The notes under the pieces: generated by a model
The model's database searches: none
Seen by the model: the letters and a program-made list of their open reading frames with translations, nothing else
Told to the model about the DNA's origin: nothing
Position numbers and translations under genes: made by a program
In this document: piece by piece, positions 19,920-64,000 of the stretch
Layout: each line of letters starts with the position of its first letter
How positions within the stretch are numbered: position 1 is the stretch's first letter
Source: Minisyncoccota bacterium
GTDB taxonomy: Bacteria > Patescibacteriota > Minisyncoccia > JBAYJV01
Reading direction: 5' to 3'
DNA: 64,000 nucleotides
Assembly (NCBI GenBank): GCA_041664925.1
Contig: JBAYJV010000001.1
Span: 361,183 to 425,182 of the forward strand

Positions 19920-19925
19920 TCTGTG

Positions 19926-20205: not shown

Positions 20206-20234
20206 CTACCCAAAAAGCTCCCGAAGGAGCTTCT
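20206..20234 (-). terminator. rho-independent terminator downstream of hup
   Basis: On the minus strand, hairpin AAGCTCC-TTCG-GGAGCTT followed by a TTTTTGGG T-run. Confidence 0.55.
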
Positions 20235-20283
20235 TGAGTTCGATTTACGATCTTATCTTTGACCGCATGCCATCAAAGAAAGA

Positions 20284-20556: not shown

Positions 20557-20617
20557 TTGTTTTCACCTCCTTTCATCGCCCACAATGGGGCTTTAGAGAT
20601 TAATTTGTATTGTATGT

Positions 20618-22135
20618 TTATCTAGCAAACTCAATAGCGCGAGTTTCTCTAATTACATTTACTTTAATTTCACCGGGATAAACCATTTCTTTCTCTATTT
20701 TTTCCGCGATTTTTTTAGCTAATTGATATGCTTCTAAATCGCTAATTTTTTCTGCATCGACAAAGACTCTTATTTCACGACCCGCTTGAATGGCGTAAGT
20801 TTTCTTAACACCATCAAAGTTGTTACTAAGGCTTTCTAATTCTTCAAGTCTTTTAATATAAGCTTCGTAATTTTCTCTTCTTACGCCTGGGCGTGAAGCA
20901 GAAAGAGCATCAGCTACCTGGATAACACGAGATTCGATATCGGTGAAGGGATAATCTTCGTGATGAGAAATTACAGCGTCAATAATTTTTTGATCAACCT
21001 TAAATTTCTCCAAAATTTTCTTGCCAATTTCTACATGAGAACCTTCAACTTCGTGGCTGACGGCCTTGCCAATATCATGAAGAATGGCAGCCCTTTTTGC
21101 AATACCGACATTGGCGCCCAACTCTTCGGCCATAATGGCACTTATGCCCGCAACTTCAATCGAGTGGCGCAAGATATTTTGACCAAAACTGGTTCTGAAA
21201 TAGAGCATGCCGATAAGATAGACTAATTGTGGGTCAAAATCAGCAATACCTAATTCATAAACAGCTTCTTCTCCGAGTTGGCGGATTTTTTCAGTGAATT
21301 CTTCTTTTACTTTAGTAACAATCTCTTCTATGCGAGCTGGTTGAATTCTGCCGTCAATGATTAATCTTTCAAGGGCAACCTTGGCTATCTGTCTTCGTAA
21401 TGGACTAAATGACGAAATAACTACTGCATCGGGAGTTTCATCAATAATTAATTCAACGCCAGTTGCTTTTTGGAAAGTACGAATATTACGACCTTCTTTT
21501 CCAATAATACGTCCCTTAACATCTTCATCTTTAATGGCCACAGTTGTCGTGGTGAATTCTTCGGCCTGGGAAGTAACAATTCTCTGCATTGACTGAGCTA
21601 TGAGATCAGCCGCTTTTTGGTCGATTTCTTCGTGTTTATGTTTTTCAAGTTTTTTAATGAGCTCAGTAATGATTTCTTCGTTTTCCTTTTCGGCCATAGT
21701 CATTACTTTTTCTTTAGCTTGCTTTACTGTTAGTTTTGCAATGCTTTGGAGTTTTTCTTGAGCTTCCTTTTCGATTGCTTGAACATTTTTTTGAATCTCT
21801 TTGATTTTCTCTACTTTCTCTAGTAAAGATTTTTTCTGGCGATCAATTTCTTCTAAATCTTTTTCAATTCTTTCTTCTCGAACAGCTAAGCGTTCTTCTT
21901 GCCTATTGAGTTGCTTCTGTCTTTCTTGTTCCTCTATCTTTACCTTCTCGAGAGTGTCTATAGCCTTCTTTTTCGCCTGAAGAATCATTTGCTGTGTTTC
22001 TTCGCGAGCTTTTCTTAAGAGTTCATTGGCTCGTTTTTCACTCGAACCAACTTTTCTAAGAGATAACCAATGACGGAAGAGGTATCCAGCAAAAACACCT
22101 AAAACTATCGCTATTGCTGCAAAATAATTACTCAT
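20618..22135 (-). CDS. rny: ribonuclease Y
   Basis: N-terminal TM helix, coiled-coil, KH domain (GRIIGKEGRNIRTFQKATGV), HD domain (HSIEVAGISAIMA...LHDIGK). Confidence 0.85.
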   Translation of the reverse strand: MSNYFAAIAIVLGVFAGYLFRHWLSLRKVGSSEKRANELLRKAREETQQMILQAKKKAIDTLEKVKIEEQERQKQLNRQEERLAVREERIEKDLEEIDRQKKSLLEKVEKIKEIQKNVQAIEKEAQEKLQSIAKLTVKQAKEKVMTMAEKENEEIITELIKKLEKHKHEEIDQKAADLIAQSMQRIVTSQAEEFTTTTVAIKDEDVKGRIIGKEGRNIRTFQKATGVELIIDETPDAVVISSFSPLRRQIAKVALERLIIDGRIQPARIEEIVTKVKEEFTEKIRQLGEEAVYELGIADFDPQLVYLIGMLYFRTSFGQNILRHSIEVAGISAIMAEELGANVGIAKRAAILHDIGKAVSHEVEGSHVEIGKKILEKFKVDQKIIDAVISHHEDYPFTDIESRVIQVADALSASRPGVRRENYEAYIKRLEELESLSNNFDGVKKTYAIQAGREIRVFVDAEKISDLEAYQLAKKIAEKIEKEMVYPGEIKVNVIRETRAIEFAR

Positions 22136-27610: not shown

Positions 27611-28597
27611 TTAATTACAAGAACCAGCTGCTGCAGGCGTTGTCGTGGAACTTTCCTGAAGAGTCGTATTGCATACTTCTGGTTTTGTAGTAAAGGCACC
27701 ACATATTGCAGTTTGGTAATCGCTTATTGATCTAGAACCATCATAGTACATATCGTTAATGATGAGAGTTGGAGAACCAGAAATTTTTTCTGTTGCATTG
27801 CCTTGATGGCTTGTAGAATCTTGAACCTGATAATCTTTACTAGTTAAAACAACTTCTTGATCTAGAAGGGCAGTTGCTTCGTTTTTCTGACAAGTCTTAA
27901 TTTTGGCAACATCAATACCTAATTTTTTAGCAATTGCTTCCCATTTCGAATCAGAATCTTGAGCGGTACTATTAGCATTCATTTCTCCAACAAAGCTCCA
28001 TAATTTTTCTTTTTGGTATTTTTGAACGCAAAGTTCACGAACATCTTGATTTACTTCTTGGGTGCCATGCATTGAACAATATTTGTTTTCTTTATCAATG
28101 CAAAAATCAGGATAACCCGAAGAATAATTGCTGTAAATAACATAATGGAGTTCAATATCTGTTGTGTTTTTTAAAAGATTAACAACGGGAATTATTGCAT
28201 CTTCTGCTTGATTACCGTAAGGGCAATAAGACATAACAAACAATTTTACATTTGGCCTTTCTGTTTTGGAAATCTCCTTTGGTTTTGCGGGATTCAAATC
28301 AACTTTCTGGGGAAAAAGATAATTTCCATCAAGTGTGGCATAAGATTCATAACTTTGCCCTAAAACATTAAGGGAAACTTTATACAAAGAGCCTGATAGT
28401 TCAATTTTGTCTACAGAAACTTTACTTGGATCACCAACTTCTTTTCCAATGACCTCAACAATTTTTTTACTAACTGCTTCTTTTGAAAGAGCATTTGAGC
28501 CGCCTGGATTACCAAAATTTTGGTAGGCCAAAGCTGCAGCTAAAACTAAAACTATTCCTCCCAAAATGACTATTGGTAAAGTATTTTTTTTAGTCAT
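27611..28597 (-). CDS. secreted/membrane-anchored Cys-rich protein with thioredoxin-fold-like segment (DsbA-like, atypical CPYG motif)
   Basis: N-terminal TM anchor. FVMSYCPYGNQAED resembles a thioredoxin-fold active-site region but has a single Cys. Several Cys pairs lie further on. Confidence 0.3.
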   Translation of the reverse strand: MTKKNTLPIVILGGIVLVLAAALAYQNFGNPGGSNALSKEAVSKKIVEVIGKEVGDPSKVSVDKIELSGSLYKVSLNVLGQSYESYATLDGNYLFPQKVDLNPAKPKEISKTERPNVKLFVMSYCPYGNQAEDAIIPVVNLLKNTTDIELHYVIYSNYSSGYPDFCIDKENKYCSMHGTQEVNQDVRELCVQKYQKEKLWSFVGEMNANSTAQDSDSKWEAIAKKLGIDVAKIKTCQKNEATALLDQEVVLTSKDYQVQDSTSHQGNATEKISGSPTLIINDMYYDGSRSISDYQTAICGAFTTKPEVCNTTLQESSTTTPAAAGSCN

Positions 28598-29213: not shown

Positions 29214-30207
29214 GTTTTAAATTATTTAAAAAACTAGTCAAACTAACTGGCAATGGAGAGTAAAATTGATAATACTCGTTCTTGAATTTAAATGCAAGCT
29301 TTTCGGCGTGTAAAAACATTCTTTTAATTTTTACTACTGGTAATTTTTTAGTCGTGTAAAGAGGATCGCCAACGATCGGATAATTCATGGAAAACAATTG
29401 AGCTCTTAACTGATGAGTGCGACCGGTTTCTGGAAATAATGAAAGCAATGTATAGGGGATATTATCGCGATCAATTAGTTTTTTTTCAACCCGATAATAA
29501 GTAATAGCTTTTCTAGCCTTTAAATCTCCTCGCGGCTTTACTAAACTAACTCTTGCATTTGGTTTTTTATGAGAACGAGAAAGGTAACTCTCGATCTTTC
29601 CTTCTTTTTCCCTAAAATGTCCAAATACCAAAGCTTTATAGGTTTTTTTAACTTGTCTTTCCTTGAATAGTGATTTTAATTCAAGAAAAGAATTTTGATT
29701 TTTAGCAACTAGGAGAAGTCCTGATGTTTCCTTATCTAGCCTATGAACAAGACCTGGTCTTAATGGATGTTCTCCGACATTTTTTAACTCTGGGCAATGA
29801 ACTAAAAGCCCACCAACTATTGTCTTGATATTAGGATTACGATCAGGATGAACCAAAATGCCTGCTTGCTTATGAAGAACTAAAAAATCTTTATTTTCAA
29901 AAGCGATCCATAGTTTTACTGAACTATCTTGTGAAATTTTAACCTGCTTTTTTTCTTGAACAGCAATTTTTATTTTATCACCTCTTTTTAAAATATATCT
30001 TGATTCTGTTTTATGATCGTTGACACTAACAGATCCTTGCTTAATCATTTCTTGGAGCCAATTTCGCGACAACTCAGGAAACTGTTTTTTTAAAAACACA
30101 TCTATTCTTAATCTGTCATCGTTTTTAATTAAAAAAAATTTTATCAGCATGTTTTGTGGGGCAAGATGGACTCGAACCATCGACCCCGACTTTAATGTCG
30201 TAGACAA
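29194..30207 (-). CDS. RluA-family 23S rRNA pseudouridine synthase (RluD-like, S4 domain + catalytic domain)
   Basis: HRLDKETSGLLLVAKN catalytic Asp motif. The first 19 codons of the ORF overlap a partial tRNA-Ile copy, so the true start is probably the ATG at 30150 (MLIKFF...). Confidence 0.8.
   Translation of the reverse strand: MSTTLKSGSMVRVHLAPQNMLIKFFLIKNDDRLRIDVFLKKQFPELSRNWLQEMIKQGSVSVNDHKTESRYILKRGDKIKIAVQEKKQVKISQDSSVKLWIAFENKDFLVLHKQAGILVHPDRNPNIKTIVGGLLVHCPELKNVGEHPLRPGLVHRLDKETSGLLLVAKNQNSFLELKSLFKERQVKKTYKALVFGHFREKEGKIESYLSRSHKKPNARVSLVKPRGDLKARKAITYYRVEKKLIDRDNIPYTLLSLFPETGRTHQLRAQLFSMNYPIVGDPLYTTKKLPVVKIKRMFLHAEKLAFKFKNEYYQFYSPLPVSLTSFLNNLKHDKFSK
30152..30194 (-). repeat. 43-nt exact partial duplicate of the 3' half of tRNA-Ile(TAT)
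   Basis: TTTTGTGGGGCAAGATGGACTCGAACCATCGACCCCGACTTTA is identical to 30253-30295. There is no upstream 5' half or acceptor partner, so it is not a functional tRNA. Confidence 0.7.
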
Positions 30208-30257
30208 AAGTCGGGTACTATGAGGCTAAGCGAATATTATTAAAAACCTTGTTTTTG

Positions 30258-30330
30258 TGGGGCAAGATGGACTCGAACCATCGACCCCGACTTTATAAGA
30301 GTCGTGCTCTACCGACTGAGCTATTGCCCC
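30258..30330 (-). tRNA. tRNA-Ile with UAU anticodon
   Basis: GGGGCAA-TA-GCTC-AGTCGGTA-GAGC-A-CGACT-CTTATAA-AGTCG-GGGTC-GATGG-TTCGAGT-CCATC-TTGCCCC-A. Loop C32 U33 U34 A35 U36 A37 A38. Confidence 0.75.
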
Positions 30331-30341
30331 TTACAAGGACA

Positions 30342-31028
30342 TTAAATTTCTATGTGTTTTATTTCTGGTGGCTGCTCTTCTTTTTGTTTTGTGCCTTTCT
30401 CTCTTTTTTCATAAGGCCTACCAAATGGATCCAGAATTTCACTAAATGGAATTTTTATCATTCCTTGGGGTGTTCTAAAAATTGCTATTTCGCTATCACA
30501 ATATATTAATTCACCGTTTATAATACCAAGTTCGGTTCTGTGACCCCTTGATCCGACAGATGGCCAATCTGGGAATATTTCTGTTATTGTCGGTTGTTCT
30601 GTTTTGGAAACAATTAACTGTAATTCTTCTGGAGATAATTCTTTCGCTGATGGTGGCAAAATCGGGGGATTCTCTGGAGACTCTTCTATAGGATATTTTT
30701 CTCCTTTTTTCAACAAAATACACGAAGCAACAACTCCTTTTCTCTTTAATATATCAAGCATCTGTCTCAATTCTTCTTCGTGATATGGGTTATAATTTTT
30801 AACAAGAATTTCTGGTCTATCTTCGGAGAGCACATCGATTTCAATATTGCCCTTATCGAAAGTATCTATAATTATCGTAATTCTCCCATCTTCGCAAGTG
30901 TTTTGTGATTCCAATTTACAGCCCAGACTTTCAAATGCCTCAGCAATAGATCGTGCAGTACTTTCTGTTATTTTTTCTCGAGAGAGTATTTTCTCTCCTT
31001 CTTTTGGTGAAAATTCCCCAGAATGCAT
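30342..31028 (-). CDS. hypothetical protein (228 aa)
   Basis: Clean ORF; no recognisable family motif. Confidence 0.3.
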   Translation of the reverse strand: MHSGEFSPKEGEKILSREKITESTARSIAEAFESLGCKLESQNTCEDGRITIIIDTFDKGNIEIDVLSEDRPEILVKNYNPYHEEELRQMLDILKRKGVVASCILLKKGEKYPIEESPENPPILPPSAKELSPEELQLIVSKTEQPTITEIFPDWPSVGSRGHRTELGIINGELIYCDSEIAIFRTPQGMIKIPFSEILDPFGRPYEKREKGTKQKEEQPPEIKHIEI

Positions 31029-31061
31029 ATATTTTTAATATTAAATGATATTGCGAATTTG

Positions 31062-31135
31062 TGGGCTCGACAGGACTTGAACCTGTGACCTTCTCAATGT
31101 CACTGAGACGCTCTAGCCAACTGAGCTACGAGCCC
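31062..31135 (-). tRNA. tRNA-Val (anticodon GAC)
   Basis: GGGCTCG acceptor, anticodon loop GTGACAT, T-loop TTCAAGT. Confidence 0.75.
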
Positions 31136-31140
31136 ATTTT

Positions 31141-31282
31141 TATTAAACCCGAAGCATTAAACCTGAAATCCGAAACAATATTTAAATTATAATTCTTAAA
31201 TTCAAAACAGTTTTTTTAAAATAAACATTTAGATTTTGAATTTGTCTCGAATTTCGAAATTCGATATTCGAATTTATTAATG
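31141..31282. repeat. intergenic repeat element copy B (homologous to 16365-16500), contains perfect 16-mer palindrome CGAATTTCGAAATTCG
   Basis: Blocks AAACCCGAAGCA, CCGAAACAA, ATTCAAAA and TTCGAATTT in the same order as copy A. Palindrome at 31248-31263. Confidence 0.6.
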
Positions 31283-31286
31283 TATG

Positions 31287-31360
31287 CGTCCCCAGCTGGG
31301 CTTGAACCAGCAACCTACAGCTTAGAAGGCTGTCGCTCTATCCAATTGAGCTATAGGGAC
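31287..31360 (-). tRNA. tRNA-Arg (anticodon TCT)
   Basis: GTCCCTA acceptor, anticodon loop CTTCTAA, T-loop TTCAAGC. Confidence 0.75.
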
Positions 31361-31373
31361 ATTAGAAACATTA

Positions 31374-32009
31374 TTATGCCTTCCTTAAAATAACAAGCTT
31401 GGTTTTTTCTCGATTTAATTTTTCCGGTTCTAATTTCAACTTATCCAATTCTTCTTTTTCTTGGCCTATTTCCTGAATAAAATAATCAGCATTACTAAGA
31501 CCCATCTTGTCATCATGATCAGCGTCTGTTTTATAGAACATAGGAATGACTATAGCGGGCTCTATTTGATGAACGATTTCTACTGCATCGGTTGCCTCAA
31601 GCACAGATTTGCCACCAACAGGTATCATTAAAACATCAACCCCATCTATTTTTTCCAATAACTTTCCTACCGAAGATTTTTGCCTAATCGTGCCCATATG
31701 GACCAATGTTGAGCCATTCCAATGAATGACAAAAATATTATTCATTGTTTTATCCGGACCAGCAGAAGAATGCACCTGAATACTGATATCTTGAACTTCA
31801 TATTCTCCTGGGTAGGTAAATGTATATTTTGTTTTATTAATAGTATTCTTATCGTACTTGAGAAAATCAGGATTACTCAAAAGACAAACATCTGGAGTGT
31901 CTTCAGATGGTTTTATGTCGTAAGTCTTATTGTCTACTGGATCAATCCAAAGGCTAATACTTCCATCATTGATTTTGAAAAATGATAAACCTTGCCAATC
32001 AATAGTCAT
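31374..32009 (-). CDS. MBL-fold metal-dependent hydrolase-like protein (Lactamase_B_3-like)
   Basis: C-terminal VDVLMIPVGG...LEATDAVEIV..IEPAIVIPMFY resembles the UPF0173-type beta-lactamase-fold hydrolase C-terminus. His motifs are degenerate. Confidence 0.4.
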   Translation of the reverse strand: MTIDWQGLSFFKINDGSISLWIDPVDNKTYDIKPSEDTPDVCLLSNPDFLKYDKNTINKTKYTFTYPGEYEVQDISIQVHSSAGPDKTMNNIFVIHWNGSTLVHMGTIRQKSSVGKLLEKIDGVDVLMIPVGGKSVLEATDAVEIVHQIEPAIVIPMFYKTDADHDDKMGLSNADYFIQEIGQEKEELDKLKLEPEKLNREKTKLVILRKA

Positions 32010-32269
32010 AAAATAGTTATTTAAAAATTAATCTTTGTATTCTTATTATACCTGATTGTAAGTTTTTTTTCTAAAAAAGCAAGTTTATTCTTAAAAAAAC
32101 GTGCTTTATTTTCGAAAAACACAATAAATCACTTGAAAAAAATAAAATACCGGCTATAATAGAAAATCTACAGCATCCAGCTGATCATTTTTTGTGCTGG
32201 TACTGTTTTCATTCCTTGAATGAATATTTGTTTATTCAATGGCATGAATTAATTTGAAAGGAGCTTTTA

Positions 32270-33406
32270 ATGACTAATGTAAAAATAAGTAAAAAGGACA
32301 AAGATAAAAAAAATAAATTCGATATAGATTTTCTAAAAAAAGGGGAAATTGTCGAAGCTAAAGTTATAAGTAAGGGGCGCAAGATTATCTATTTTGATTT
32401 GGGCGCCAGAGGAATGGGAATATGCTATAAAAGTGAATTTTTTGATTTACCCCAAGATATGAGGGAAATTGAAGAGGGAAAAGCGATTGCTGCTAAAGTC
32501 TTACAGCTTGAAAACGAAGAAGGGTATGTTGAGTTATCTCTTAAGAGAGCAGGAGAAGAGAAGAGCTGGGATTACATTAAAGACAAGATGGAAAAAGGAG
32601 AGGATATTACAGTTAAAATCGTCGGAGCTAATAGGGGTGGTCTTTTAGCCAAGGTTAGAGACATTGACGCTTTCTTGCCAGCCTCTCAATTGTCTAAAGA
32701 CAATTATCCAGATTTTGGCGGAGACAGCGAAAGAATTCTCAAAGAACTTAAAAATCTGGTTGGAAAAGATCTGCAAGTACGCATCGTTGACATTGAGAAA
32801 AATGACAAAAAACTAATTTTATCTGAAAAAGCAGACGAAACAGAGAAAATTAAAGAGAGAATCAAGAATCATCAAATTGGTGACATTGTTGAGGGAAAAG
32901 TTTGTGGAATTGTTGATTACGGAGCGTTTATTAAATTTGACGATAACCTAGAAGGACTAGTGCACATATCAGAAATAGATTGGCAACTCATTGAGGATCC
33001 TAGAGATGTTTTGAAGGTTGGTCAAGACGTTAAAGCAAAAATTATCGGGTTAAGAGATAATCAGGTATCTCTTTCCCTTAAGGCGCTAAAGCAAGATCCG
33101 TGGCTTGAAATTAAGGATAAATATCAGAGGGGCGATGTGGTTAAGGCAGAAGTTGTAAAATTAAATCCTTATGGTGCTTTTGTAAAACTTGACGAGAAAA
33201 TTCAAGGATTAGTACCAATCTCAAAACTTCCAACGAAAGATGGACAAATATCAATTGAAATTGGGAAACAGTACAAATTCAAAATATTCTCAGTTAATAT
33301 TTTGCGCCACCGCATGGCATTAATACCAGCCGAAGAGGCAGAAAAGACTGAGAAAAAAACAGAAAAGACAGAAAAAGTAAATGAGATAGAAAAAGAAAAA
33401 AAGTAA
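32270..33406 (+). CDS. rpsA: 30S ribosomal protein S1 (short, 4 S1 domains)
   Basis: Four tandem S1/OB repeats (GEIVEAKV..., DITVKIVGANRGG..., GDIVEGKVCGIVDYGAFI..., GDVVKAEVVKLNPYGAFV...). Confidence 0.8.
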   Translation: MTNVKISKKDKDKKNKFDIDFLKKGEIVEAKVISKGRKIIYFDLGARGMGICYKSEFFDLPQDMREIEEGKAIAAKVLQLENEEGYVELSLKRAGEEKSWDYIKDKMEKGEDITVKIVGANRGGLLAKVRDIDAFLPASQLSKDNYPDFGGDSERILKELKNLVGKDLQVRIVDIEKNDKKLILSEKADETEKIKERIKNHQIGDIVEGKVCGIVDYGAFIKFDDNLEGLVHISEIDWQLIEDPRDVLKVGQDVKAKIIGLRDNQVSLSLKALKQDPWLEIKDKYQRGDVVKAEVVKLNPYGAFVKLDEKIQGLVPISKLPTKDGQISIEIGKQYKFKIFSVNILRHRMALIPAEEAEKTEKKTEKTEKVNEIEKEKK

Positions 33407-37472: not shown

Positions 37473-38384
37473 TTATTTTCTTGTCTTGTCGTGAAATTTT
37501 TGATGAATTTCTTTTAATCCCTTATCGGTAACATGGGTATAAATTTGAGTTGTGGATACATTGGCATGACCCAATAGGGCTTGAACTGATCTCAGGTCTG
37601 CTCCTCCTGCCAATAAATCGGTAGCAAATGAATGTCTTAAGGTATGCGGAGTAATCTGTTTTACTATTCCGGCCCTAATTGTCCATTTTTGCACAATTCT
37701 TTGAACTGATCTGGGGGTAAGTCTTAAGTTGTCTCGTTTTCCAACTTTTTTAATGCGGGCAAATAGGGACGGATCAACATCTGTGCGTTTTTCTAAGTAC
37801 TTCTTTATGGCTTCTTTGGCTTTTTCAGAAAGAAAAACAATTCTGATTTTATCCCCCTTACCCTTAATGCTAAAATCTGTTTTTTCTAGGTTAATTTTTT
37901 CTCTATTTAAACTACAAAGCTCTGATACCCGAAGGCCAGTGCTAAAAAGAGTTTCTAAAATTGCTTTATCCCTGAGATTAGTTATTTTGACACGGTCTTT
38001 TTCTTTCTCTAATGGCGTTGCCAATAATCTCTCAAGCTCGTTACCATCTAAAATTTCAATTTCGTGCTGACCACTTTTTGCGAGTTCTATTTTTTCTGGA
38101 GAAAGCGAAGTAATATTATTTTTAGAAAAGTAAAGCAAGAATCCTCGAAGAGCAATTAGGTGATAATTTTGAGTAATCTTTTTAAGTTGACCGTTATTCA
38201 GGCGATTAAGGTAAAGACGATATTCTCGAACTAAATCGCCAGTAATCTGCTCTGGTTTTTCTATTTTTGCCCACTCCAAGAAACGATTTAAGTATCTTCT
38301 ATAATTATCTAAGGTTTTTTGACTAGAACCTCTCTCAATTTCAAGGTAGTCAAGGTAGCGCTTAATAAGATCATTTATGGTCAT
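37473..38384 (-). CDS. xerC: tyrosine site-specific recombinase, XerC/XerD-like
   Basis: N-terminal SAM-like core-binding domain. C-terminal catalytic motifs R...HTLRHSFATDLLAGGADLRSVQALLGHANVSTTQIYTHV (His-x-x-Arg, catalytic Tyr). Confidence 0.8.
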   Translation of the reverse strand: MTINDLIKRYLDYLEIERGSSQKTLDNYRRYLNRFLEWAKIEKPEQITGDLVREYRLYLNRLNNGQLKKITQNYHLIALRGFLLYFSKNNITSLSPEKIELAKSGQHEIEILDGNELERLLATPLEKEKDRVKITNLRDKAILETLFSTGLRVSELCSLNREKINLEKTDFSIKGKGDKIRIVFLSEKAKEAIKKYLEKRTDVDPSLFARIKKVGKRDNLRLTPRSVQRIVQKWTIRAGIVKQITPHTLRHSFATDLLAGGADLRSVQALLGHANVSTTQIYTHVTDKGLKEIHQKFHDKTRK

Positions 38385-54950: not shown

Positions 54951-57887
54951 TCAAGGAACACTAATTGATTTATTAGCGTTCTGACTTACGGTTGGCCAAT
55001 GGAAACTTAAAATATCTATATTCAACCAGAAGCGGCAACTAGCGGAAATATTTTTACTTCCTCCACTTGAATAAGAGTGAGAAAGACCATCACCTTGAGC
55101 TGCTTTGTAAAGAGAGTCTTTCTTTGAGCCATCTTTCCAATCAATTTGATTTGTTGTTGGCATGTCAAGTCTTAATTTTGTTCCTCGATAAGCAATGGGT
55201 CCAACTTTAAAGTTAATTCCTTGAATAATTGGTTCGCCCAAAATACTTATATAAATATTTGGCACAGAACAAATGCCGATAGATGCTGGCCTTATATCTT
55301 GGTCATAGAGCTTCACGGTATGGGGAGGAGACGAGACGGGTAATGGATTAAGACTTCCAATGCTGCAATCTTCCCAATTATTTGCATTAAGTAAGGTACA
55401 GACAGCAGAAACTAAATCAGTCGGACAGGCGAAATTTCCATTAATTTCGACAGTAATCAATAATTTTTTGACAATACTGATTAGATCTAAATGAATAATA
55501 TCTTGGATGAGATTTTGATTGATAACAATTTTAAAAAGTCTATGAAGAATGTCGTAACGAATTCCAGTTAATTTCTCAGCTGCCTTGGCAGTAAACTCTA
55601 CAATCAAATCCTTTACTTTAGTTTCCGCATAACTCTTAAGGCTTTCTAGGGATATGTTTTTTGTTTCGGTTAAAAATTTAGCGAAACGAGCAATTTCTGC
55701 AATTAATTTTGGATCAATACCCAATGATTCTTCGATAAAGGGAGCAACAAAATCAGTAGCTATTTGAGTTAGAATTGCTTTTCCGCGAGATTCAAGATAG
55801 CTTTTGAAAGAACTAATAAATTGAGAAGGATTGAAGTTCAAGAAACCATTAAGGTTTCCACCGGTACTTATGGCGTAATTAGCAAAATCAATAATATACT
55901 TTGAAAGATCAGGGTTTATCTTTAATTCATTTTTTAGGAATGAATAGGCCTGCTGAGAAACAAATTTAACGGCGTTTTTAATAAATACCTGACTATCAAT
56001 ATCTATGGTTATTCCAGCACTGCTTAGGGAAGCAGAAAATCCAGTTCCATCAACTTCAACAGATAAATCTGCTAAACTAAGGCCCTTGTCAAAGAGATAA
56101 TATTTTAGGAGACGGATAGTTTTTTCAACTAACTGACTATCAATTGCTTTTTGAATAGTATTCCCATCAACATCCGGAACATTTAATTTGACGATATCTA
56201 TGAGCTTATTGACTGCCTCAGCGGCAATATCGTAAGCAACGTTCTGAATTATTTCAATTCCTTTCTGAAGAGTAATATTATTAGCAGATGCATAAGATTG
56301 CCAAAGAGACTGAATGTCGGCTTTGGTTTTTTGAATAATGTCTTTTAGACTTAGACTCCTTGAATCAACCAAATACCTGACAAAACCAACAACATTGTTG
56401 ATTTCCTGATCAGATAGGCCGTTTTCTCTCTTAAATCTATTAATTGTGTCTGAAGCCAAACTATTTACTGCTTGAATAATTTGACTTTTGGTTGTACTAG
56501 CAAAAGTATCAATACTTAGGCCAGTTTTTATAAAATTAACTAATTTTTCAGCTTGAACAAGTTTTTGAAGCACAGGCGAGGTACTTTCCTGAGCGTACTG
56601 GAGAAGAAAAGTACCAATACTAGCAGGGGAGGAAAGAATATTGCCAAGTTCTTGTCCGTTTTTAACTAGATATGCTGAGAAATTACCGAGTTCTTGAGCA
56701 ACGCCGGGGTCAAGGTTTAAAGTAAGTGAAAAATTAACTATAAACTCTTTTACAACATTAGCAGCTACTCCTTTGAGGGCGCTAACGCCTAAATCTATGA
56801 ATTTATTGAGATTATCAGCAAAATAATCTGGATCACTAACAGCTTGTTGAATATTGATGCCCTTTGCCTGAAGCCAGAAATAAAAATCAACTAATCCCTG
56901 AACCTTTTTAGCAATGTCTTCACCAAAAAGTCCAACGATAACTTCACCTGAGAAATCTTTTGCAAAACTTCCTAAAAGAGCGGAAATAATAGAGCCAGTA
57001 ATATTACACAAATCTAACTTAAGAGCTTCCTGATCGCCTTGGTCAGTGGGATTTTCTTTCCATCCTTTCTCGGTACACTGATAATTCTCTCCGGGTCGTG
57101 GATCTTTTTTTGGTTCTCCGCATGACCATTGGTAATACCCAGAAGAGTTTTTTTGGCAGGTAGAATTGTTATAGTAACGGCAATATTCTGTGCCATTTTC
57201 TTCTATAATTCTAGCTAGATCACAAGTGTCTGAAGGGGATCCCTGAGATAGATAGCAATTAAATGAACTATCTATTCCGAGAAGATTTTCAACGCTAAAA
57301 TTTATGACTGGCTCTGTAATGGTGCAGGCGCTTTTGACTTTTACCCAGTAACCTCTAAAAGGCTCAAGGTTGGCCGCCGGGACAAGCATTTTATAATCAG
57401 ACCCAGTCGCTTCAAAAAGCCAATTAACGTCTAATTGGCAAGTTCCTTTAAGTTGGTTCCAGTTATAGTTGGTGGTAGACGAGACAAGATTCCATCCAGC
57501 CTTAAGCGTTGTGTTTTTTTCACTCCTATTTCCTTGGCCGGTAGATCCAATATCAAGACTGCAATCTTCGTCAACCCTTACCCAATAGGCATTTAGCGGT
57601 TTTAAGGTGGTTACTTTTTGATATTTGAAAAGAGTAGAATTCCACTCCCATGGACCAGAAGCAATTCTGCAACCAGAAAGGTATGTTGATGATAAAGTTT
57701 CATCGGAAGGAGAAATCAAATTCCATCCCTTTTTAAGACTAATTGTTCCTTGGGGATCCGGAACAACTCCTGCTATAGCTTTTTTAGGTGACAAAAAAGA
57801 GCCTGCATAAATGAGGCCTGTTTGTGAGATAATAAGCGATATTAAAACAAAAATAATCGTTATTTTCTTTGTTAATCCAATGTGCAT
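54951..57887 (-). CDS. large secreted protein (978 aa) with N-terminal internal repeats; unknown function
   Basis: Signal/anchor MHIGLTKKITIIFVLISLIISQTGLIYA. Repeated module LKKGWNLISPS / LKAGWNLVSST. Long helical middle region. Confidence 0.35.
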   Translation of the reverse strand: MHIGLTKKITIIFVLISLIISQTGLIYAGSFLSPKKAIAGVVPDPQGTISLKKGWNLISPSDETLSSTYLSGCRIASGPWEWNSTLFKYQKVTTLKPLNAYWVRVDEDCSLDIGSTGQGNRSEKNTTLKAGWNLVSSTTNYNWNQLKGTCQLDVNWLFEATGSDYKMLVPAANLEPFRGYWVKVKSACTITEPVINFSVENLLGIDSSFNCYLSQGSPSDTCDLARIIEENGTEYCRYYNNSTCQKNSSGYYQWSCGEPKKDPRPGENYQCTEKGWKENPTDQGDQEALKLDLCNITGSIISALLGSFAKDFSGEVIVGLFGEDIAKKVQGLVDFYFWLQAKGINIQQAVSDPDYFADNLNKFIDLGVSALKGVAANVVKEFIVNFSLTLNLDPGVAQELGNFSAYLVKNGQELGNILSSPASIGTFLLQYAQESTSPVLQKLVQAEKLVNFIKTGLSIDTFASTTKSQIIQAVNSLASDTINRFKRENGLSDQEINNVVGFVRYLVDSRSLSLKDIIQKTKADIQSLWQSYASANNITLQKGIEIIQNVAYDIAAEAVNKLIDIVKLNVPDVDGNTIQKAIDSQLVEKTIRLLKYYLFDKGLSLADLSVEVDGTGFSASLSSAGITIDIDSQVFIKNAVKFVSQQAYSFLKNELKINPDLSKYIIDFANYAISTGGNLNGFLNFNPSQFISSFKSYLESRGKAILTQIATDFVAPFIEESLGIDPKLIAEIARFAKFLTETKNISLESLKSYAETKVKDLIVEFTAKAAEKLTGIRYDILHRLFKIVINQNLIQDIIHLDLISIVKKLLITVEINGNFACPTDLVSAVCTLLNANNWEDCSIGSLNPLPVSSPPHTVKLYDQDIRPASIGICSVPNIYISILGEPIIQGINFKVGPIAYRGTKLRLDMPTTNQIDWKDGSKKDSLYKAAQGDGLSHSYSSGGSKNISASCRFWLNIDILSFHWPTVSQNANKSISVP

Positions 57888-57955
57888 GATTTTAAATTCA
57901 CAGATTTTGTTGTATATTAAAACTACATCCCCATTATACTCTTAATTCTAATCAA

Positions 57956-58783
57956 ATGACTGTGGATAAAAATAAAACAAAAACCTCATTTCTGTCGGAA
58001 GATATAAAACCGCAAAAATCTTTAGGGCAAAATTTTCTTTTAGGTCAAGAAATACTTAATGAAATAGTTGATCTGGCAGAAGTGAAAACGAGCGATACAG
58101 TTCTTGAGATTGGACCAGGAACAGGATCTTTAACAAAAGAATTGGCAAAAAATGCCTCAAAAGTTATTGCGGTGGAAAAAGACGAGAAATTAATTTTCGT
58201 TCTTAAGGAAGAATTAAAAAACTACAAAAATATTGAAATTATTTGTAGCGACATTAGGGAGTGGCTTAATAGTGATAATTTAAAAATACAGGAACCATAC
58301 AAGCTTGTGGCCAATTTGCCATATTATTTGAGCAGTTTTATCATTAGACGGTTTTTAGAAATTAAACAAAAACCGGAAATGATTGTTTTAACTCTCCAAA
58401 AAGAACTTGTTGAGAGAATTTGCGAAAGAGAAGGAAGAATGAGTCTTATTTCAATCATGGTAAATCTCTATGGGAAACCTCAGTTGGGGCCTATTATTAC
58501 CAGAGATAAATTTTATCCTGCTCCTCAAGTTGATTCACGGGTTTTAATTATAAAAGATATAAAAAAGCCGGAGAATATTGATGAAAAATATTTTTTCCGG
58601 ATTCTTCGAATTGGATTTTCAAGCAAAAGAAAAAAACTTTTAAGCAATCTTAAAAATGGAACACGACTTTCAAAAGAAAAATTAAAAGAAATTTTTAATG
58701 ATTTATTCATTAGTGACATGGTCAGAGCTCAAGAATTGTCACTAGATCAATGGAAGAAATTGAGTGCCAAGATAAAGACATAG
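57956..58783 (+). CDS. rsmA: 16S rRNA (adenine1518/1519-N6)-dimethyltransferase
   Basis: SLGQNFLLGQEI...VLEIGPGTGSLT...NLPYYLSS: KsgA/RsmA motifs. Confidence 0.85.
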   Translation: MTVDKNKTKTSFLSEDIKPQKSLGQNFLLGQEILNEIVDLAEVKTSDTVLEIGPGTGSLTKELAKNASKVIAVEKDEKLIFVLKEELKNYKNIEIICSDIREWLNSDNLKIQEPYKLVANLPYYLSSFIIRRFLEIKQKPEMIVLTLQKELVERICEREGRMSLISIMVNLYGKPQLGPIITRDKFYPAPQVDSRVLIIKDIKKPENIDEKYFFRILRIGFSSKRKKLLSNLKNGTRLSKEKLKEIFNDLFISDMVRAQELSLDQWKKLSAKIKT

Positions 58784-58895
58784 GAAACCTAGAATTGACA
58801 ACTAAAAAATAGGTGTCAGAAACTATAGAAAATATGCCCAGTTGTCCCCAGTTTTCGTGGTTTAACTTGGGATTTTTTTTGTTATAATTGAACCA

Positions 58896-59747
58896 ATGAA
58901 GAAAAAAGTTTTTTTCCTAGTTTTTGGTATTGGAGGGATTTTGTTGTTGGCAAGTTTTGTAATGTCAGGAGGACAGGACAATAAAGCATCACTAGGTGAA
59001 GCAGTAAGCTCAACTGCAGAAAATCAGACAACCTATTCGTTTTATAAAGATGATGACGTAGATGGCCTTTCGAATGCCGAAGAGGTAATTTTTGGTTCGT
59101 CAATTAATGTGACAGACACAGATGGCGACGGTTATCTTGATGGTGAAGAAGTAAGGAATGGTTATGACCCAATCAAGGCCGGGACAGCGCGCCTTTCTGA
59201 TAGAGAAAATCTTAATGCATCAATCCGTTACTATATTTGGCTTAGAGAGGAAAAGGGAATTAGTGAATTCAAAATGGACCAGGGATTACTTGATGAATTT
59301 GCTAGTCGTTACCCTGAATCTGTTCAGATTGGTGAAATTCAAGACAGCGACATAAAACTTATTTCTCAGGATAACGAAGAAAGTGTTCGTAAATATTTAG
59401 CAGATCTCAATAAAATTGGACTTCCGGAAGGCCTCACAAGTTATCAAGAAATTGTTAAAGGATATGATGAAACCAGCAATGCCTTAATTGATGATCTTTT
59501 AGGGAAAATAGAATTGGCGCGTCTTGATTTTTCTTATTTAGAAACGCCTTTGTCTGCCAAAGAAATTCAAAAAGGCTATTTAACAATTGTTAGAGAATTT
59601 TCTAGTATTTTTTCTGACTTAAAAAGTTACTATCAAAACCCGATTCAAGTGGAGCTAAATATTAAAAAAGCCCAAAAACTTATTGATCTAGCCCAACAAA
59701 TAGAGAATATTAAGCTTGAGCTTATAAGAAAATACCAAATCAGTTAA
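58896..59747 (+). CDS. secreted protein with thrombospondin-type-3-like Ca-binding Asp-rich repeats
   Basis: Signal peptide. DDDVDGLSNAEEVIFGSSINVTDTDGDGYLDGEEVRNGYDP. Confidence 0.3.
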   Translation: MKKKVFFLVFGIGGILLLASFVMSGGQDNKASLGEAVSSTAENQTTYSFYKDDDVDGLSNAEEVIFGSSINVTDTDGDGYLDGEEVRNGYDPIKAGTARLSDRENLNASIRYYIWLREEKGISEFKMDQGLLDEFASRYPESVQIGEIQDSDIKLISQDNEESVRKYLADLNKIGLPEGLTSYQEIVKGYDETSNALIDDLLGKIELARLDFSYLETPLSAKEIQKGYLTIVREFSSIFSDLKSYYQNPIQVELNIKKAQKLIDLAQQIENIKLELIRKYQIS

Positions 59748-60463
59748 TGAAAAAGATCTTTCGCAAACTTACAAAAACTTTCATAATCTTGGTTGTTTGC
59801 TTTATTGTTTTTGTTGTTTTGGTAGTTATTTTTGTCCATCGCGATGAAACTACAGGAAAAATCACAATTTCATTTAAATCAAATGCCAATAAAATTTCTG
59901 ACAACGGTTTTAGTGATATTCTTTCAAGAGAGGCAAGTTTAGCAAGCTTAACTCAAGTTGATTGGGCCGAGGCATATAACCAAGCATTAAATAAACAAAA
60001 TACACAGATTGCTGATACTAAAAACAATCAAACAGGAAATCTTAAAGAAACAATTTCAACGCAAAAAGGGCCGAATAGCAATCAAAAGGTATACGAAAAA
60101 TTTGTAAAATATCTCCAAGCATCAAATGTTCAACTTGATGGATCTCAAAATCCGCTAAATTTGGCAATTCAGTATCGTGATAATGATCAAAAAGACAAGA
60201 TTAATGGGCTGATCACTAATCTAGATAAAAAAATAGCCAGCATTGAGACTATTGTTCCGCCGGAGGAGGCAGTGGGTTATCATCTCGCAAAATTAAGACT
60301 TTTAAGAGAAATAAGCGCTATTTTAAGCAAAATTAAGGCCTCAGACAAAGGAGTGGCGCTGGAGCAAATTATTCCAGAAGAAGAGTTTTCTTATTTAGCT
60401 GGACTTGATATTATCCTTCAAAAATACTTAACTTACTTTTTTTACTCAAAGATAAGTGGTTAA
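59747..60463 (+). CDS. membrane-anchored hypothetical protein (238 aa)
   Basis: N-terminal TM IILVVCFIVFVVLVVIFV. Start overlaps the previous stop (ATGA). Confidence 0.3.
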   Translation: MKKIFRKLTKTFIILVVCFIVFVVLVVIFVHRDETTGKITISFKSNANKISDNGFSDILSREASLASLTQVDWAEAYNQALNKQNTQIADTKNNQTGNLKETISTQKGPNSNQKVYEKFVKYLQASNVQLDGSQNPLNLAIQYRDNDQKDKINGLITNLDKKIASIETIVPPEEAVGYHLAKLRLLREISAILSKIKASDKGVALEQIIPEEEFSYLAGLDIILQKYLTYFFYSKISG

Positions 60464-63311
60464 AAAAGCCATAAAATTTACTGGTTTTGGATTTTTCTTA
60501 GCGGCACTAGTTCTTTTTGCGCTGAATATTTTTGCTACAAAAACAAATGCTACTACCGAAATAAACAAAGATGAAATTCTTGATAATCATTTTGATATGG
60601 ACATTCCTGGTTTTAAAATCTGCCAAGAACTTCGTCGCTTGACAGAAGATTTAATAGATCCATCAGTAACTCCTCCCTATGAGGTTTTTAATTTTGGGGT
60701 CAATGAAAATACAGATGATAGTGAAGGGGCTTTGGATGGGAGCGACACAGATTCTGTAACGACCCAAGACGGCAGTGTTTTTCAAAAATGGTTTCTTGAT
60801 GCGTGCATTATGGATGGCTACATCACAGAAGTAAGACATGTAGCGACAATTCATAATTTTGATGTGACTGACTCCATTTTTAGCGATGAAAATGCAATCA
60901 AAGAACTCAATCTAGGTGAACTTTTCGAGGAAGCATTTATGCAAGTTACTAAAGAAGGTGTACTTGATGATAAGAGTGGTCTTAGTGATCAGGATCAAAA
61001 AAACTTACAAGAGGCAAGTCTAAAAGATTTCTTCCTTTCTCTTAAAGACTCAAACGAACAATTCATGACGGATTTAATGACAGCCATATCAGAAAAACAG
61101 AGAATTGACCTCGAAGAACTTCAAAAATATGAATTAGCGAAAATAGAAAAAGCGAGAGAAGATGTTAATAAACTTACTTATGAAGTTTATCGAGAACTTG
61201 TAGATGAGTCTTTAATTTACCAAGATACTCTCCAAGGCGAGCTTGTTCGCGGCTTAGGACTTAAGGAAATTATTCCGCAAGGAGAAACTGCCGACAGTTG
61301 TCCTTTTGGTGTTTTGATTCCAAATACTTCGGATGGCGCTCAATGTATGATAATAAAGAAAGAGGGCAGAGTCATTAGCAATGTTGATAATTTCATTAAT
61401 GAAGAATCGCTTCAAAAAGCAAGAGATTTTCTAATGTGCTATTTGGCTCCTTGGAGGCATTTCCCTGTTGGAGAAGATTATTATTTTGCGGCATCAGCAG
61501 CGGAAAGAACTGCAATAAAAAATAAGAACAATCAAAAATTTCGTGATAATACCGACCCTGATTTTAAATATATCGACGAAGCAATGAGAACTGCTAATAG
61601 TGGAGTTCCTTTTTGTGGAACACAGGCAGTTGCAGAAATAATAAGGACTGATCCTGATATCAAGAAGCCATTTATTTTGGCTAATTATCCTACAAGCACT
61701 TATCCTCTTTTTAAACAGGAGCTTTACGATGGCAGCAAAAATATTTGCCAAGTTGCCGAAGAAAATGGTTCAGAACCCAATTTAGCAAGACTATGCAGAG
61801 AGGCAATAAGAAAAGTAATGGATAATAAGAGTGGTAGTGGCGACGATAGAAGTTGTGACACACAAAATATTTGCGAAAAAACAAGAATAAAATTAGACGA
61901 TCCAAATACTGGTTTCCCATATGACTATATTAACGCAAGTGGACAAACAGAGACTGCAAAAGGAAGACCGGATATTTTTGATACTGATTTTGAAGGATAT
62001 GTGAAATATTTATGCCCGAGTGATCAGATGAAAGAAAGATTAAAAAAAGATCTTTTATTAGAGATGGCTCGAAAATACCAGTTTATTTACGATGCTCCTC
62101 CGGAGCATTGGTATTATACTTCCGGTACTGGTGATGATAAAACCAGATGTGGTTTGATTTTAGGGAACTTAGGTTACGATGTTGAGGGAATCATAGGAGA
62201 GATTTCAAGTGATAAACTATCTTCCCAAACATTACTTTCTTATCAAAAATATCAAGAAAAAGTCTGGAAGTCAGATCTAAAAATCGCTCTAGCTTACAGA
62301 CCAGATAATGACGATACCGATTATGCTACATATAGCGGCAATCCTTACAAAAATAGCTTTGATGGCGTAACTTCATTCTTGTCGTCTGCGATGGATAAAA
62401 TTAAAAATGACTACAAATCATCAAGAACCGCTGAATATTTAGCAGGAGAAGGGCTAAGATCAGATAAATATTTGGTCGGATTTTCTGATTATCAAACAAA
62501 TAAATACTTCTTTATAAACACGGAAAACATTATTTCTCCGGCGCTATTCTTAAAAGACAAAGTCATGGCGGCTACTCAAGCGCAGTTTGATTTAGCGCAA
62601 ATGGCGTTCAAACAGCAGCCCGAAGGATCTGGAGAAACAACAATATGGACTTGTCCGACACCTTATGTAACGGGCGATGACCTTAAAAAGGATGATTTCC
62701 CAACAGCTGGTCCGTACAATAGTCTAAAAGGAATTTGCGCTGACCAAAACAAGGGATTGAAGAGTGGCTGGTATTTGATTGATTTAACTCCGGACGAGTC
62801 AGATCCAAGCAAAAAAAATTATGATTGTCGCTGGCCCCAGTTTAATAATATAACCTGTGAAGTTTTTGGTTACACAACGACCCAAGCTATAAAAGAATAC
62901 AAGATGCCCAATGAATTACCGGCGCCATGGGAAGATGCAAGCGAGTATATGAAAATACCTGATGAGTATAAGAAATGGTTTGAAGGTGATATTACAGTTC
63001 AAGCAGGAACAAGTAGCAATGGAACACCAATTAAAGTTACAAAAACTGGCGAGGAACTGGGACTAACAAAATCACCACCAGCGTTTGACATAGCTGAATA
63101 CGGGAAGGACCCGTATGACAATTGGAGCGAGCAATATCCAGAAATCTATGGCAAGGCTTACGGAAACGATTATATGGCTCCTGCAACAAGCTCAGATTAT
63201 TATATTAACAAATGGTACAAGGGCATTACTCAGCTTTATGAAAAACCGATGTCAGAAATTTTAAGAACTTGGTTTAGACAAGAAGCGACAACAACACCAA
63301 CGGGTCCGTAA
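60456..63311 (+). CDS. large secreted protein (951 aa), Cys-containing, unknown function
   Basis: N-terminal anchor/signal FTGFGFFLAALVLFALNIFATKTNA. 8-bp overlap with the upstream gene. Confidence 0.35.
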   Translation: MVKKAIKFTGFGFFLAALVLFALNIFATKTNATTEINKDEILDNHFDMDIPGFKICQELRRLTEDLIDPSVTPPYEVFNFGVNENTDDSEGALDGSDTDSVTTQDGSVFQKWFLDACIMDGYITEVRHVATIHNFDVTDSIFSDENAIKELNLGELFEEAFMQVTKEGVLDDKSGLSDQDQKNLQEASLKDFFLSLKDSNEQFMTDLMTAISEKQRIDLEELQKYELAKIEKAREDVNKLTYEVYRELVDESLIYQDTLQGELVRGLGLKEIIPQGETADSCPFGVLIPNTSDGAQCMIIKKEGRVISNVDNFINEESLQKARDFLMCYLAPWRHFPVGEDYYFAASAAERTAIKNKNNQKFRDNTDPDFKYIDEAMRTANSGVPFCGTQAVAEIIRTDPDIKKPFILANYPTSTYPLFKQELYDGSKNICQVAEENGSEPNLARLCREAIRKVMDNKSGSGDDRSCDTQNICEKTRIKLDDPNTGFPYDYINASGQTETAKGRPDIFDTDFEGYVKYLCPSDQMKERLKKDLLLEMARKYQFIYDAPPEHWYYTSGTGDDKTRCGLILGNLGYDVEGIIGEISSDKLSSQTLLSYQKYQEKVWKSDLKIALAYRPDNDDTDYATYSGNPYKNSFDGVTSFLSSAMDKIKNDYKSSRTAEYLAGEGLRSDKYLVGFSDYQTNKYFFINTENIISPALFLKDKVMAATQAQFDLAQMAFKQQPEGSGETTIWTCPTPYVTGDDLKKDDFPTAGPYNSLKGICADQNKGLKSGWYLIDLTPDESDPSKKNYDCRWPQFNNITCEVFGYTTTQAIKEYKMPNELPAPWEDASEYMKIPDEYKKWFEGDITVQAGTSSNGTPIKVTKTGEELGLTKSPPAFDIAEYGKDPYDNWSEQYPEIYGKAYGNDYMAPATSSDYYINKWYKGITQLYEKPMSEILRTWFRQEATTTPTGP

Positions 63312-63339
63312 AAATTAAGATTATTTAAATATCCTCCTA

Positions 63340-64000
63340 ATGTTTAGTTTTTCTAAAAAACTAAAATCAAAAAGATGGTTTTTGCCCACGCTTTTATTAG
63401 TCGTGGCAGTTGTTTTATTTATTCCCAAAGGATCTGCTTTGGCAGCAGGGGATTTACAGATAGGAATGTTGGGAGGAATAGTCTGTGCAATCATTGCCAC
63501 TGTTCTTTATATTCCGGCAATGATAGCTACTTATCTAATGCAGCTTGGTGGAAAGGTTTTATCCGCTGTCATGGCAAAGAGTTTTAATGAGAATTTATAT
63601 ATCCATTCACCATTTGTTCAAATAGCTTGGGGATTTTGCCGTGATTTTGCCAATATTTTCTTTATTGTCTGGCTGGTCATTATAGCGGTTTGCCTAATGC
63701 TTGACATCAAGAGTTTTAATGCAAAAAAACGACTAATTCAGCTTGTCTCGATTGCGCTATTGGTCAATTTCAGTTTGATTTTCTGCGGCTTTATGATTGA
63801 TATTGCCCAAGGACTAATGTACTTCTTTACTCAGACCATGGTTCGTATTAATGACGGGCAACAGCCTTATTCATTAGCCGATGGTCTAACTAAAGCATTT
63901 AGACAAAATGAATTATTCGGTGCTGCCGTGCCTCCGGCTTGGGAATTTGTTGGCATTGATTCGGCTGGAAGTCTTAATGTCGCTTTAAAAAACCTTATGG
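63340..64000 (+). CDS. polytopic membrane protein, 3'-truncated by window edge (possible TrbL/VirB6-like)
   Basis: Not in the ORF track (no stop within window). ATG at 63340, open to 64000. MFSFSKKLKSKRWFLPTLLLVVAVVLFIPKGSALAAGDLQIGMLGGIVCAIIATVLYIPAMIATYLMQLGG... Signal peptide plus at least 4 TM helices. Confidence 0.35.
   Translation, partial: MFSFSKKLKSKRWFLPTLLLVVAVVLFIPKGSALAAGDLQIGMLGGIVCAIIATVLYIPAMIATYLMQLGGKVLSAVMAKSFNENLYIHSPFVQIAWGFCRDFANIFFIVWLVIIAVCLMLDIKSFNAKKRLIQLVSIALLVNFSLIFCGFMIDIAQGLMYFFTQTMVRINDGQQPYSLADGLTKAFRQNELFGAAVPPAWEFVGIDSAGSLNVALKNLM

Follow-up and report, generated by a model that had tools for sequence, protein, structure and literature searches.

The stretch of DNA analysed here, called the window throughout, is a 64,000-nucleotide (nt) piece of the genome of a Minisyncoccota bacterium (assembly GCA_041664925.1, contig JBAYJV010000001.1). 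Its last part, positions 58896-64000, carries four co-directional and tightly packed open reading frames (ORFs), here named g1 to g4, whose presence was confirmed both in the ORF list and by direct translation. As set out below, these genes are the conserved front end of a type IV secretion system (T4SS) operon of the Patescibacteria type. The genes and their upstream neighbour are as follows.

57956-58783, + strand: rsmA/ksgA, 16S rRNA dimethyltransferase (Pfam RrnaAD, E 1.2e-48)
58896-59747, + strand: g1, 283 amino acids (aa), exported or membrane-anchored, with thrombospondin type 3 (TSP3) repeats and a predicted C-terminal helical domain (from the ORF and Pfam)
59747-60463, + strand: g2, 238 aa, single-pass membrane protein (from the ORF and hydropathy)
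60456-63311, + strand: g3, 951 aa, GTG start, Cys-rich, exported or anchored (from the ORF and hydropathy)
63340-64000, + strand: the 5' 661 nt of g4, ATG start, the beginning of a 1090-aa multi-pass membrane protein (from translation)

The g1 stop codon and the g2 ATG overlap as TAATG, g2 and g3 overlap by 8 nt, and g3 and g4 are separated by a gap of 28 nt, a packing that suggests co-translation. The ATG of g4 at 63340 is the first start after an in-frame TAA and is followed by 220 open codons up to the window end. At this position the mechanical ORF list gives just a 70-aa ORF in the wrong frame (63375-63587), because it omits ORFs still open where the sequence stops. All four can be taken to be real genes, since each has homologues at the same positions in other genomes. 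The initial annotation, made from the sequence alone, had described a secreted TSP3-type protein, a membrane-anchored protein of 238 aa, a secreted Cys-containing protein of 951 aa and a further ORF, open to the window end, with several transmembrane (TM) helices, and each description stands: g1 has an N-terminal hydrophobic segment and a Pfam TSP3_bac match above cutoff, g2 a single very hydrophobic N-terminal helix in a hydropathy scan, g3 an N-terminal hydrophobic segment and 16 Cys, and g4 the expected predicted helices.

The remainder of the operon was read from a public contig (GCA_041671265.1 JBAZBV010000002.1; 208.5 kb; Paceibacterota; locus L001 in what follows), which was located by the exact g3 sequence. 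The two sequences differ at 2 bases in 13,545 overlapping (positions 50758 and 50775 of the window), both outside g1-g4; the window probably comes from an assembly near-identical to this one. A 433-kb Joint Genome Institute contig carries the same proteins as the window. The genes from g4 onward, in L001 coordinates, are as follows.

12885-16157: g4 at its full length of 1090 aa, the gene ending 2612 nt past the window end
After g4: g5, a 292-aa soluble protein
17122-17520: PrgI/VirB3 homologue, 132 aa, two TM helices (Pfam PrgI, 34.4 bits against a cutoff of 27)
17559-17924, about 4.0-4.4 kb past the window end: 23S_rRNA_IVP protein (PF05635), 121 aa, four-helix-bundle, between PrgI and TrsD
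17991-18656: TrsD/VirB4-N-terminal-like protein, 221 aa (N-terminal part of VirB4_plasma, E 5.6e-13)
18753-20762, 5.4 kb past the window end: VirB4 ATPase, 669 aa (NCBIfam conju_CD1110, 390.4 bits against a cutoff of 325)
After VirB4: g10, a 193-aa tail-anchored protein
21383-21841: VirB2-type pilin at the operon end (T4SS_pilin PF18895, 40.3 bits against a cutoff of 26.6), the gene being interrupted by the contig end

The VirB4 protein also matches Pfam P-loop_TraG (96.7 bits), AAA_10, DUF87 and CagE_TrbE_VirB. For the TrsD-like protein there are further matches to the N-terminal part of conju_CD1110 (E 2.1e-8) and to TrsD NF041427 (E 3.6e-6, below the curated cutoff), as well as a precomputed PF26593 TraC-like annotation. 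The loose T4SS resemblance proposed in the initial annotation is thus borne out by PrgI/VirB3, TrsD-like, VirB4 and pilin genes downstream of the window, and extending the contig beyond 64000 revealed the VirB4 ATPase in place of unrelated housekeeping genes. The full order is rsmA, g1-g2-g3-g4, g5-PrgI(VirB3)-[23S_rRNA_IVP insert]-TrsD-VirB4-g10-pilin, and we consider it highly probable (roughly 85%) that g1-g4 are the promoter-proximal half of one chromosomal operon of about 12.9 kb and at least 11 genes, encoding a Patescibacteria-type T4SS, which is related to the conjugation machinery (class MPF-FATA) of bacteria with a single membrane. Here rsmA, conserved on the upstream side, serves as the marker of the operon's 5' boundary and is not a T4SS component.

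Support for this reading comes from comparison with other genomes, where the order rsmA-g1-(g2)-g3-g4-(g5)-PrgI-TrsD-VirB4-pilin was found in more than 40 loci. The set comprised the relatives L004 and L006, 17 loci in genomes that represent GTDB species (Parcubacteria and Terrybacteria metagenome-assembled genomes, or MAGs, among them) and 29 metagenome loci. Distant loci read rsmA, g1, a g2-like single-pass protein, g3, g4, a small soluble protein, PrgI, TrsD, VirB4, a small TM protein and a pilin that is often Cys-rich, and protein identity among the syntenic loci is just 25-50%. Wherever the junction was covered, g4 directly follows g3 (38/38 loci). Homologues of g1 hold the same operon slot in L004, L006-L008, L011-L023 and others, and in most related loci g1 is directly preceded by rsmA. 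In many species the cluster is also found at one and the same chromosomal site (with rsmA, groES/EL and Wzy_C), which indicates vertical inheritance, and its flanking genes are housekeeping genes (groES/EL, rsmA, Wzy_C, PNPase, FtsH, LeuRS, gyrA and others). No relaxase and no type IV coupling protein (T4CP) came to light in a scan of the 64-kb window and the next 8.5 kb that took in all ORFs of 500 aa or more and most of those of 200 aa or more. Given the conserved order, the housekeeping flanks and the lack of a relaxase, T4CP or adjacent integrase, the cluster is a vertically inherited chromosomal operon and not an integrative conjugative element (ICE).

The link between g4 and the VirB6 channel proteins is transitive. 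The protein begins with a signal-like segment and has about seven TM helices in residues 1-345 by hydropathy scan, after which a hydrophilic C-terminal extension of about 740 aa follows that is rich in E, R, K and G. This tail begins with 13 K/R against 2 D/E, and its positively charged start suggests that it is cytoplasmic. It is charged, of low complexity and coiled-coil-like, ends in a weakly TPR-like stretch and differs greatly in length among relatives, which are proteins of 466-1472 aa. A search for TrbL/VirB6 had been proposed in the initial annotation, and its outcome is divided: a direct match for g4 itself was sought at E up to 10 and none was found, but some members of its family do match. 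Among 26 homologues, seven carry a precomputed PF19590 (TrbL_3) annotation and one a precomputed PF04610, and in a rescan of the family 4/27 members matched PF04610 TrbL, with a best E of 3.3e-7. On this basis, g4 is read as a putative extended VirB6/TrbL-like channel subunit.

The first two genes of the operon appear to be related to one another. In g1, Pfam TSP3_bac (PF18884) scores 36 bits against a cutoff of 25 (E 6.3e-9) in two stretches covering DTDGDGYLDGEEV, which places two TSP3-type repeats at about residues 50-95, downstream of the N-terminal hydrophobic segment in a protein that has no Cys. TSP3_bac is present in 19/20 members of the g1 family (best E 2.9e-16), and by sequence the repeats are of the predicted calcium-binding type. 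The fast-evolving g2 begins with a TM helix (residues 12-30) and has a conserved HRDExTGK motif and, joined by a disordered linker, a helical bundle at the C-terminus; its equivalents in nearly every related locus are 220-265 aa long, with one N-terminal TM helix and no Cys, at the same position. In an AlphaFold2 (AF2) model, g2 is all-helical after the TM helix, with a predicted local distance difference test (pLDDT) score of about 85 for residues 112-237. Alignment of the two positional families by hhalign gave a probability of 97.1% (E 6e-11, 123 columns), and because of this match g1 and g2 have a C-terminal helical domain in common and are probably paralogues.

No match to this helical domain was found among solved structures. 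Foldseek against the PDB returned nothing at E <1 for the g2 model, and the sole match of the g1 family profile in the PDB was the calcium-binding segment of the Bap surface protein. Two candidate identities were considered and dropped. As the missing VirB8, g2 would fit in size and single-pass topology; this identity was ruled out by the all-helical AF2 model and the lack of a Foldseek match in the PDB, and there is likewise no Pfam or NCBIfam VirB8 match. A VirB5/TraC-like identity for the g1/g2 helical domain received no support from Foldseek or from the PDB profile search and is not claimed.

Several other observations concern the g1 region. A perfect extended -10 motif, TGTTATAAT, lies at 58880-58888 (+ strand) and ends 7 nt before the g1 ATG, without a convincing -35; it went unreported by a generic promoter scan, and its position may point to a leaderless or near-leaderless g1 transcript. 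Relatives of the Terrybacteria type have two tandem g1 paralogues (seen in the g1 region of L019, L021, L042, L045, L046, L050 and L051), and several loci have an extra, very Cys-rich exported protein, with up to 58 Cys, between rsmA and g1.

For the third gene, a word-indexed search returned 35 matches to g3. When 1.84 billion cluster representatives were searched exhaustively with a profile, 57 clusters only came up, with no tail of marginal matches; the family is small and isolated in sequence space. It is lineage-restricted, and all members with an examined genomic context (L004, L006, and the GTDB-species and metagenome loci) occur in this operon. Conserved motifs include AREDVNKL, CYLAPWRHFP, AGQGIRPEKY, ATQAQFDLA and LPAPWED. 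No known domain was detected in g3 and no match among solved structures; the hydrolase domain that the initial annotation had considered for the 951-aa protein was not detectable by sequence or fold, whether of the SLT, CHAP, NlpC/P60 or lysozyme kind found in VirB1 proteins. Five relatives, however, do possess a C-terminal VirB1-type SLT lytic transglycosylase domain, which is bona fide in having the AES, GxMQ and YNAG motifs, and two of them lie in the same operon slot (L024 and L025). Because of this fusion, g3 is suggested to be a cell-wall-associated scaffold.

The pilins of the system would come from two places, one of them the operon end and the other an array located 52 kb upstream of g1-g4.

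3929-5122, + strand: pilin-like fusion protein, 397 aa, with a C-terminal pilin-like TM pair (from the TM pattern)
5131-5490, + strand: small VirB2-type pilin (PF18895, 29.1 bits against a cutoff of 26.6)
5551-5979, + strand: small VirB2-type pilin (PF18895, 47.5 bits against a cutoff of 26.6)
6031-6429, + strand: small VirB2-type pilin (PF18895, 35.8 bits against a cutoff of 26.6)

The array at 3929-6429, noticed in the initial annotation, is therefore real, with three PF18895 matches above cutoff and a pilin-like TM pair in the 3929-5122 protein, and it presumably encodes filament subunits of the same T4SS. The fusion protein has a signal peptide, repeated beta-rich modules and Cys-rich DGDGKIDCEDPDC-type motifs, with 14 Cys in all, and no PF18895 match of its own. 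Pilins that end related T4SS operons are likewise extended and Cys-rich (8-23 Cys).

Considering these parts together, a working arrangement can be proposed. Embedded in the membrane, g4 and PrgI/VirB3 would anchor a VirB4 hexamer and, together with TrsD, would form the translocon channel and a platform for pilin assembly, the charged g4 tail of about 740 aa probably lying in the cytoplasm. The products of g1, g2 and g3, which would be exported or anchored and lie mostly outside the cell, would provide the part of the machine that lies beyond the membrane and crosses the cell wall, standing in for VirB8-, VirB1- and adhesin-type components that are unrecognisable in this lineage. Of these, g1 would add calcium-binding TSP3 repeats to the helical domain it has in common with g2, and g3 would be a large scaffold, probably disulfide-stabilised, which in related lineages carries a VirB1-type SLT muramidase that would open the cell wall. 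Such a machine would polymerise VirB2-like pilins from both places, the single one of the operon end and the four of the 3929-6429 array. Analogy with Southlakia epibionticum would give it a role in epibiotic life on a host cell and not in conjugation, a host-interaction role being preferred because no relaxase or coupling protein occurs nearby.

A more specific version of this proposal is possible but should be held tentatively. It states that g1-g3 are unrecognised structural subunits, namely an extracellular stalk or platform, specific to the lineage and made of new folds, which replaces VirB8, VirB5 and VirB1 and couples the VirB6/VirB3/VirB4 complex to the VirB2 pilus, with g3 as the ancestral carrier of the VirB1 SLT domain.

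It is conceivable, though unlikely, that g3 is not a passive scaffold but an enzyme of new fold, such as a hydrolase of the cell wall or of the host envelope. Many charged residues, together with a Cys and a His, are invariant in the well-predicted core of the protein, and a putative active site could be assembled from E201, R234, E235, D236, R305, D311, E316, R323, D324, C328 and H335; the SLT fusion in relatives is moreover a typical trait of VirB1-like hydrolases with several domains in bacteria that have a single membrane (PMC12102498). The invariant residues are, however, equally explicable as structural or interface positions, and g3 resembles no hydrolase family by sequence or fold.

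It is improbable that g1-g3 make up an independent cell-envelope module, with a surface-layer, adhesion or cell-wall-maintenance function, and that just the genes from g4 onward belong to the T4SS. Such a module would account for the lack of homology between g1-g3 and any known T4SS component, for the housekeeping neighbourhood and for TSP3 repeats, which are found in many unrelated surface proteins (the matches included MtsD, CglD and Bap). It would not readily account for the invariable placement of g3 homologues directly before g4 homologues across 38 loci of low identity, for a g3 family of just 57 clusters whose members with examined context are all in the same operon, for the overlapping or abutting genes from g1 to g4, or for g3 relatives with the VirB1-type SLT domain typical of T4SS operons.

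Very improbable indeed is the idea that the cluster belongs to a Gram-positive-type ICE mediating DNA transfer, for although its VirB4 falls in the CD1110 family, whose ATPases are those of conjugative elements, TrsD and PrgI are components of the conjugation type and a TrwB/VirD4-like gene lies 8 kb upstream in the distant relative L006, the window and the 8.5 kb beyond it contain no relaxase, coupling protein, replication gene or cluster-adjacent integrase, the sole tyrosine recombinase (37473-38384) is 20 kb away, GC content is uniform, the shared chromosomal position in many species points to vertical inheritance, and relaxases are missing from most such clusters (PMC12102498). A mobile-element reading in general was set aside on the same grounds, with no integrase, relaxase or T4CP adjoining the cluster.

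A number of points count against the assignment of g1-g4 to a T4SS operon, or qualify it. The VirB4 part of the operon lies beyond the 64-kb window and was read from the near-identical public contig. Co-transcription is something we infer, and promoter and terminator scans of 57800-64000 gave counts no different from those in shuffled sequence. Membrane topology comes from a simple hydropathy scan. The g4 protein itself has no Pfam match, TrbL/VirB6 included, even at E up to 10, and its family profile found no VirB6 chain in the PDB, only coiled-coil noise from the tail. The structure model of g3 is just partly confident (mean pLDDT 65), and that of g2 is poor outside the C-terminal bundle. 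Finally, g1, g2 and g3 have no detectable homologue among known T4SS components, and the roles that we infer for them are based on topology, synteny and one domain fusion.

Other features of the region deserve mention in their own right. The 23S_rRNA_IVP gene is missing from most related operons, lies at another position in L018 and has a weakly similar short ORF (E 2e-4) in L026, a pattern that suggests a small mobile or selfish insert. In the Parcubacteria relative L004 (14609-18397), and also in L027, VirB4 is a 1262-aa protein with an intein (Intein_splicing and LAGLIDADG_3 domains). Divergently adjoining the rsmA/T4SS operon, a gene at 54951-57887 (- strand) encodes a protein of 978 aa that starts with a hydrophobic segment, contains 16 Cys and has no match in Pfam, NCBIfam or PHROGs. 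It is kept in close and moderately distant relatives (L006, L007, L031, L033, L038, L039 and L052) and could be one more exported part of the T4SS, or a substrate of it. A thioredoxin/GILT-like protein (PF25011, PF03227) encoded at 27611-28597 (- strand) may be relevant to disulfide handling in the many Cys-rich exported proteins of this genome.

Gene orientation and GC skew both change sign near 32 kb (region about 30000-33000), where the cumulative skew also reaches its minimum. This switch could be the replication origin, about 27 kb from the T4SS operon, and a candidate origin there is in line with reports that Patescibacteria T4SSs are origin-proximal. A dnaA gene was looked for at the switch and is not there, the flanks being genes for a metallo-beta-lactamase-fold protein and ribosomal protein S1.

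Work on the Patescibacteria has already described T4SSs of this class. Wang et al. 2023 reported an essential T4SS with pilins in a Saccharibacterium, the S. epibionticum cluster SEML1_0006-0019 (PMC10633639), and this system is essential for epibiotic growth (PMC10633639, PMC12857230). A survey of 3,035 Patescibacteria genomes by Quinonero-Coronel et al. 2025 placed a Patescibacteria VirB4 clade nested in MPF-FATA and described a repertoire of VirB4, TrsD, PrgI/VirB3, VirB6 and VirB2 arrays, with KsgA abundant near virB4, VirB8 and VirB1 mostly undetectable, relaxases rare and mostly no adjacent T4CP (PMC12102498). A 2025 FEMS review has drawn attention to extended VirB6 proteins and to how unusual pilins are in a single-membrane T4SS (PMC12857230), and T4SS pilins are highly expressed in Paceibacterales co-cultures (PMC10936435). 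As a class, the apparatus is thus known and is not the uncharacterised one that the initial annotation had hinted at; the T4SS itself was published earlier (Wang 2023; Quinonero-Coronel 2025), and the locus does not add a new one.

The locus shares with the published chromosomal systems its VirB4, TrsD-like, PrgI/VirB3 and putative VirB6-like proteins and VirB2-type pilins, including a separate array, as well as its chromosomal location, the KsgA gene next door, and the lack of an adjacent relaxase or T4CP and of a recognisable VirB8. It differs in the fixed module of three genes for exported proteins (g1-g3) that precedes VirB6 in this lineage, which is a subgroup of Paceibacteria/Parcubacteria and has Terrybacteria-type MAGs among its members. 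The VirB1-type SLT domain is not found here and is fused to g3 in sister lineages, whereas S. epibionticum has peptidase and lysozyme genes downstream of virB4.

Comparison with the MPF-FATA T4SSs of Gram-positive bacteria (pCF10 prg/pcf, pIP501 tra, pGO1 trs and the Clostridioides difficile CTn CD1110 type) reveals a similar single-membrane architecture, with VirB4 (best NCBIfam model conju_CD1110), a PrgI-like VirB3, TrsD and a multi-pass VirB6 analogue, and with upstream genes for accessory proteins that are exported and anchored in the membrane. Those systems, however, include a relaxase, a T4CP, a VirB1 hydrolase of the PrgK/TraG type and a VirB8-like PrgL/TraM, and lack VirB2 pilins, whereas the operon described here has pilins, no VirB8-like fold found for g2 and no hydrolase domain in g3. 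With extended VirB6 proteins, such as the VirB6 paralogues of Rickettsiales (PMC12857230), g4 has in common an N-terminal block of at least five TM helices followed by a very large hydrophilic C-terminal domain; it differs in its lack of a direct TrbL/VirB6 match and in a tail that is charged, of low complexity, coiled-coil-like and variable in length.

What is new is modest, and consists of the fixed g1-g3 module, whose three exported proteins are encoded ahead of VirB6 in a single Paceibacteria lineage, the probable paralogy of g1 and g2, the g3 family with its SLT fusion, and the lack of matches to solved structures. The module is not described in PMC10633639, PMC12102498, PMC12857230 or PMC10936435, and the supplementary tables of PMC12102498 make no mention of TSP3, TrbL_3 or 23S_rRNA_IVP accessions.

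The T4SS of Patescibacteria is the first to be shown essential for its bearer, and its pairing of Gram-positive-type machinery with VirB2 pilins is unusual; the field has yet to establish how it passes through the cell wall and what takes the place of VirB8 and VirB1 (PMC12102498, PMC12857230). As conserved exported proteins that always accompany VirB6 in one large Paceibacteria lineage, the products of g1-g3 are candidates for the missing extracellular parts, and for g3 the domain fusion in its relatives provides a tie to the missing VirB1 function.

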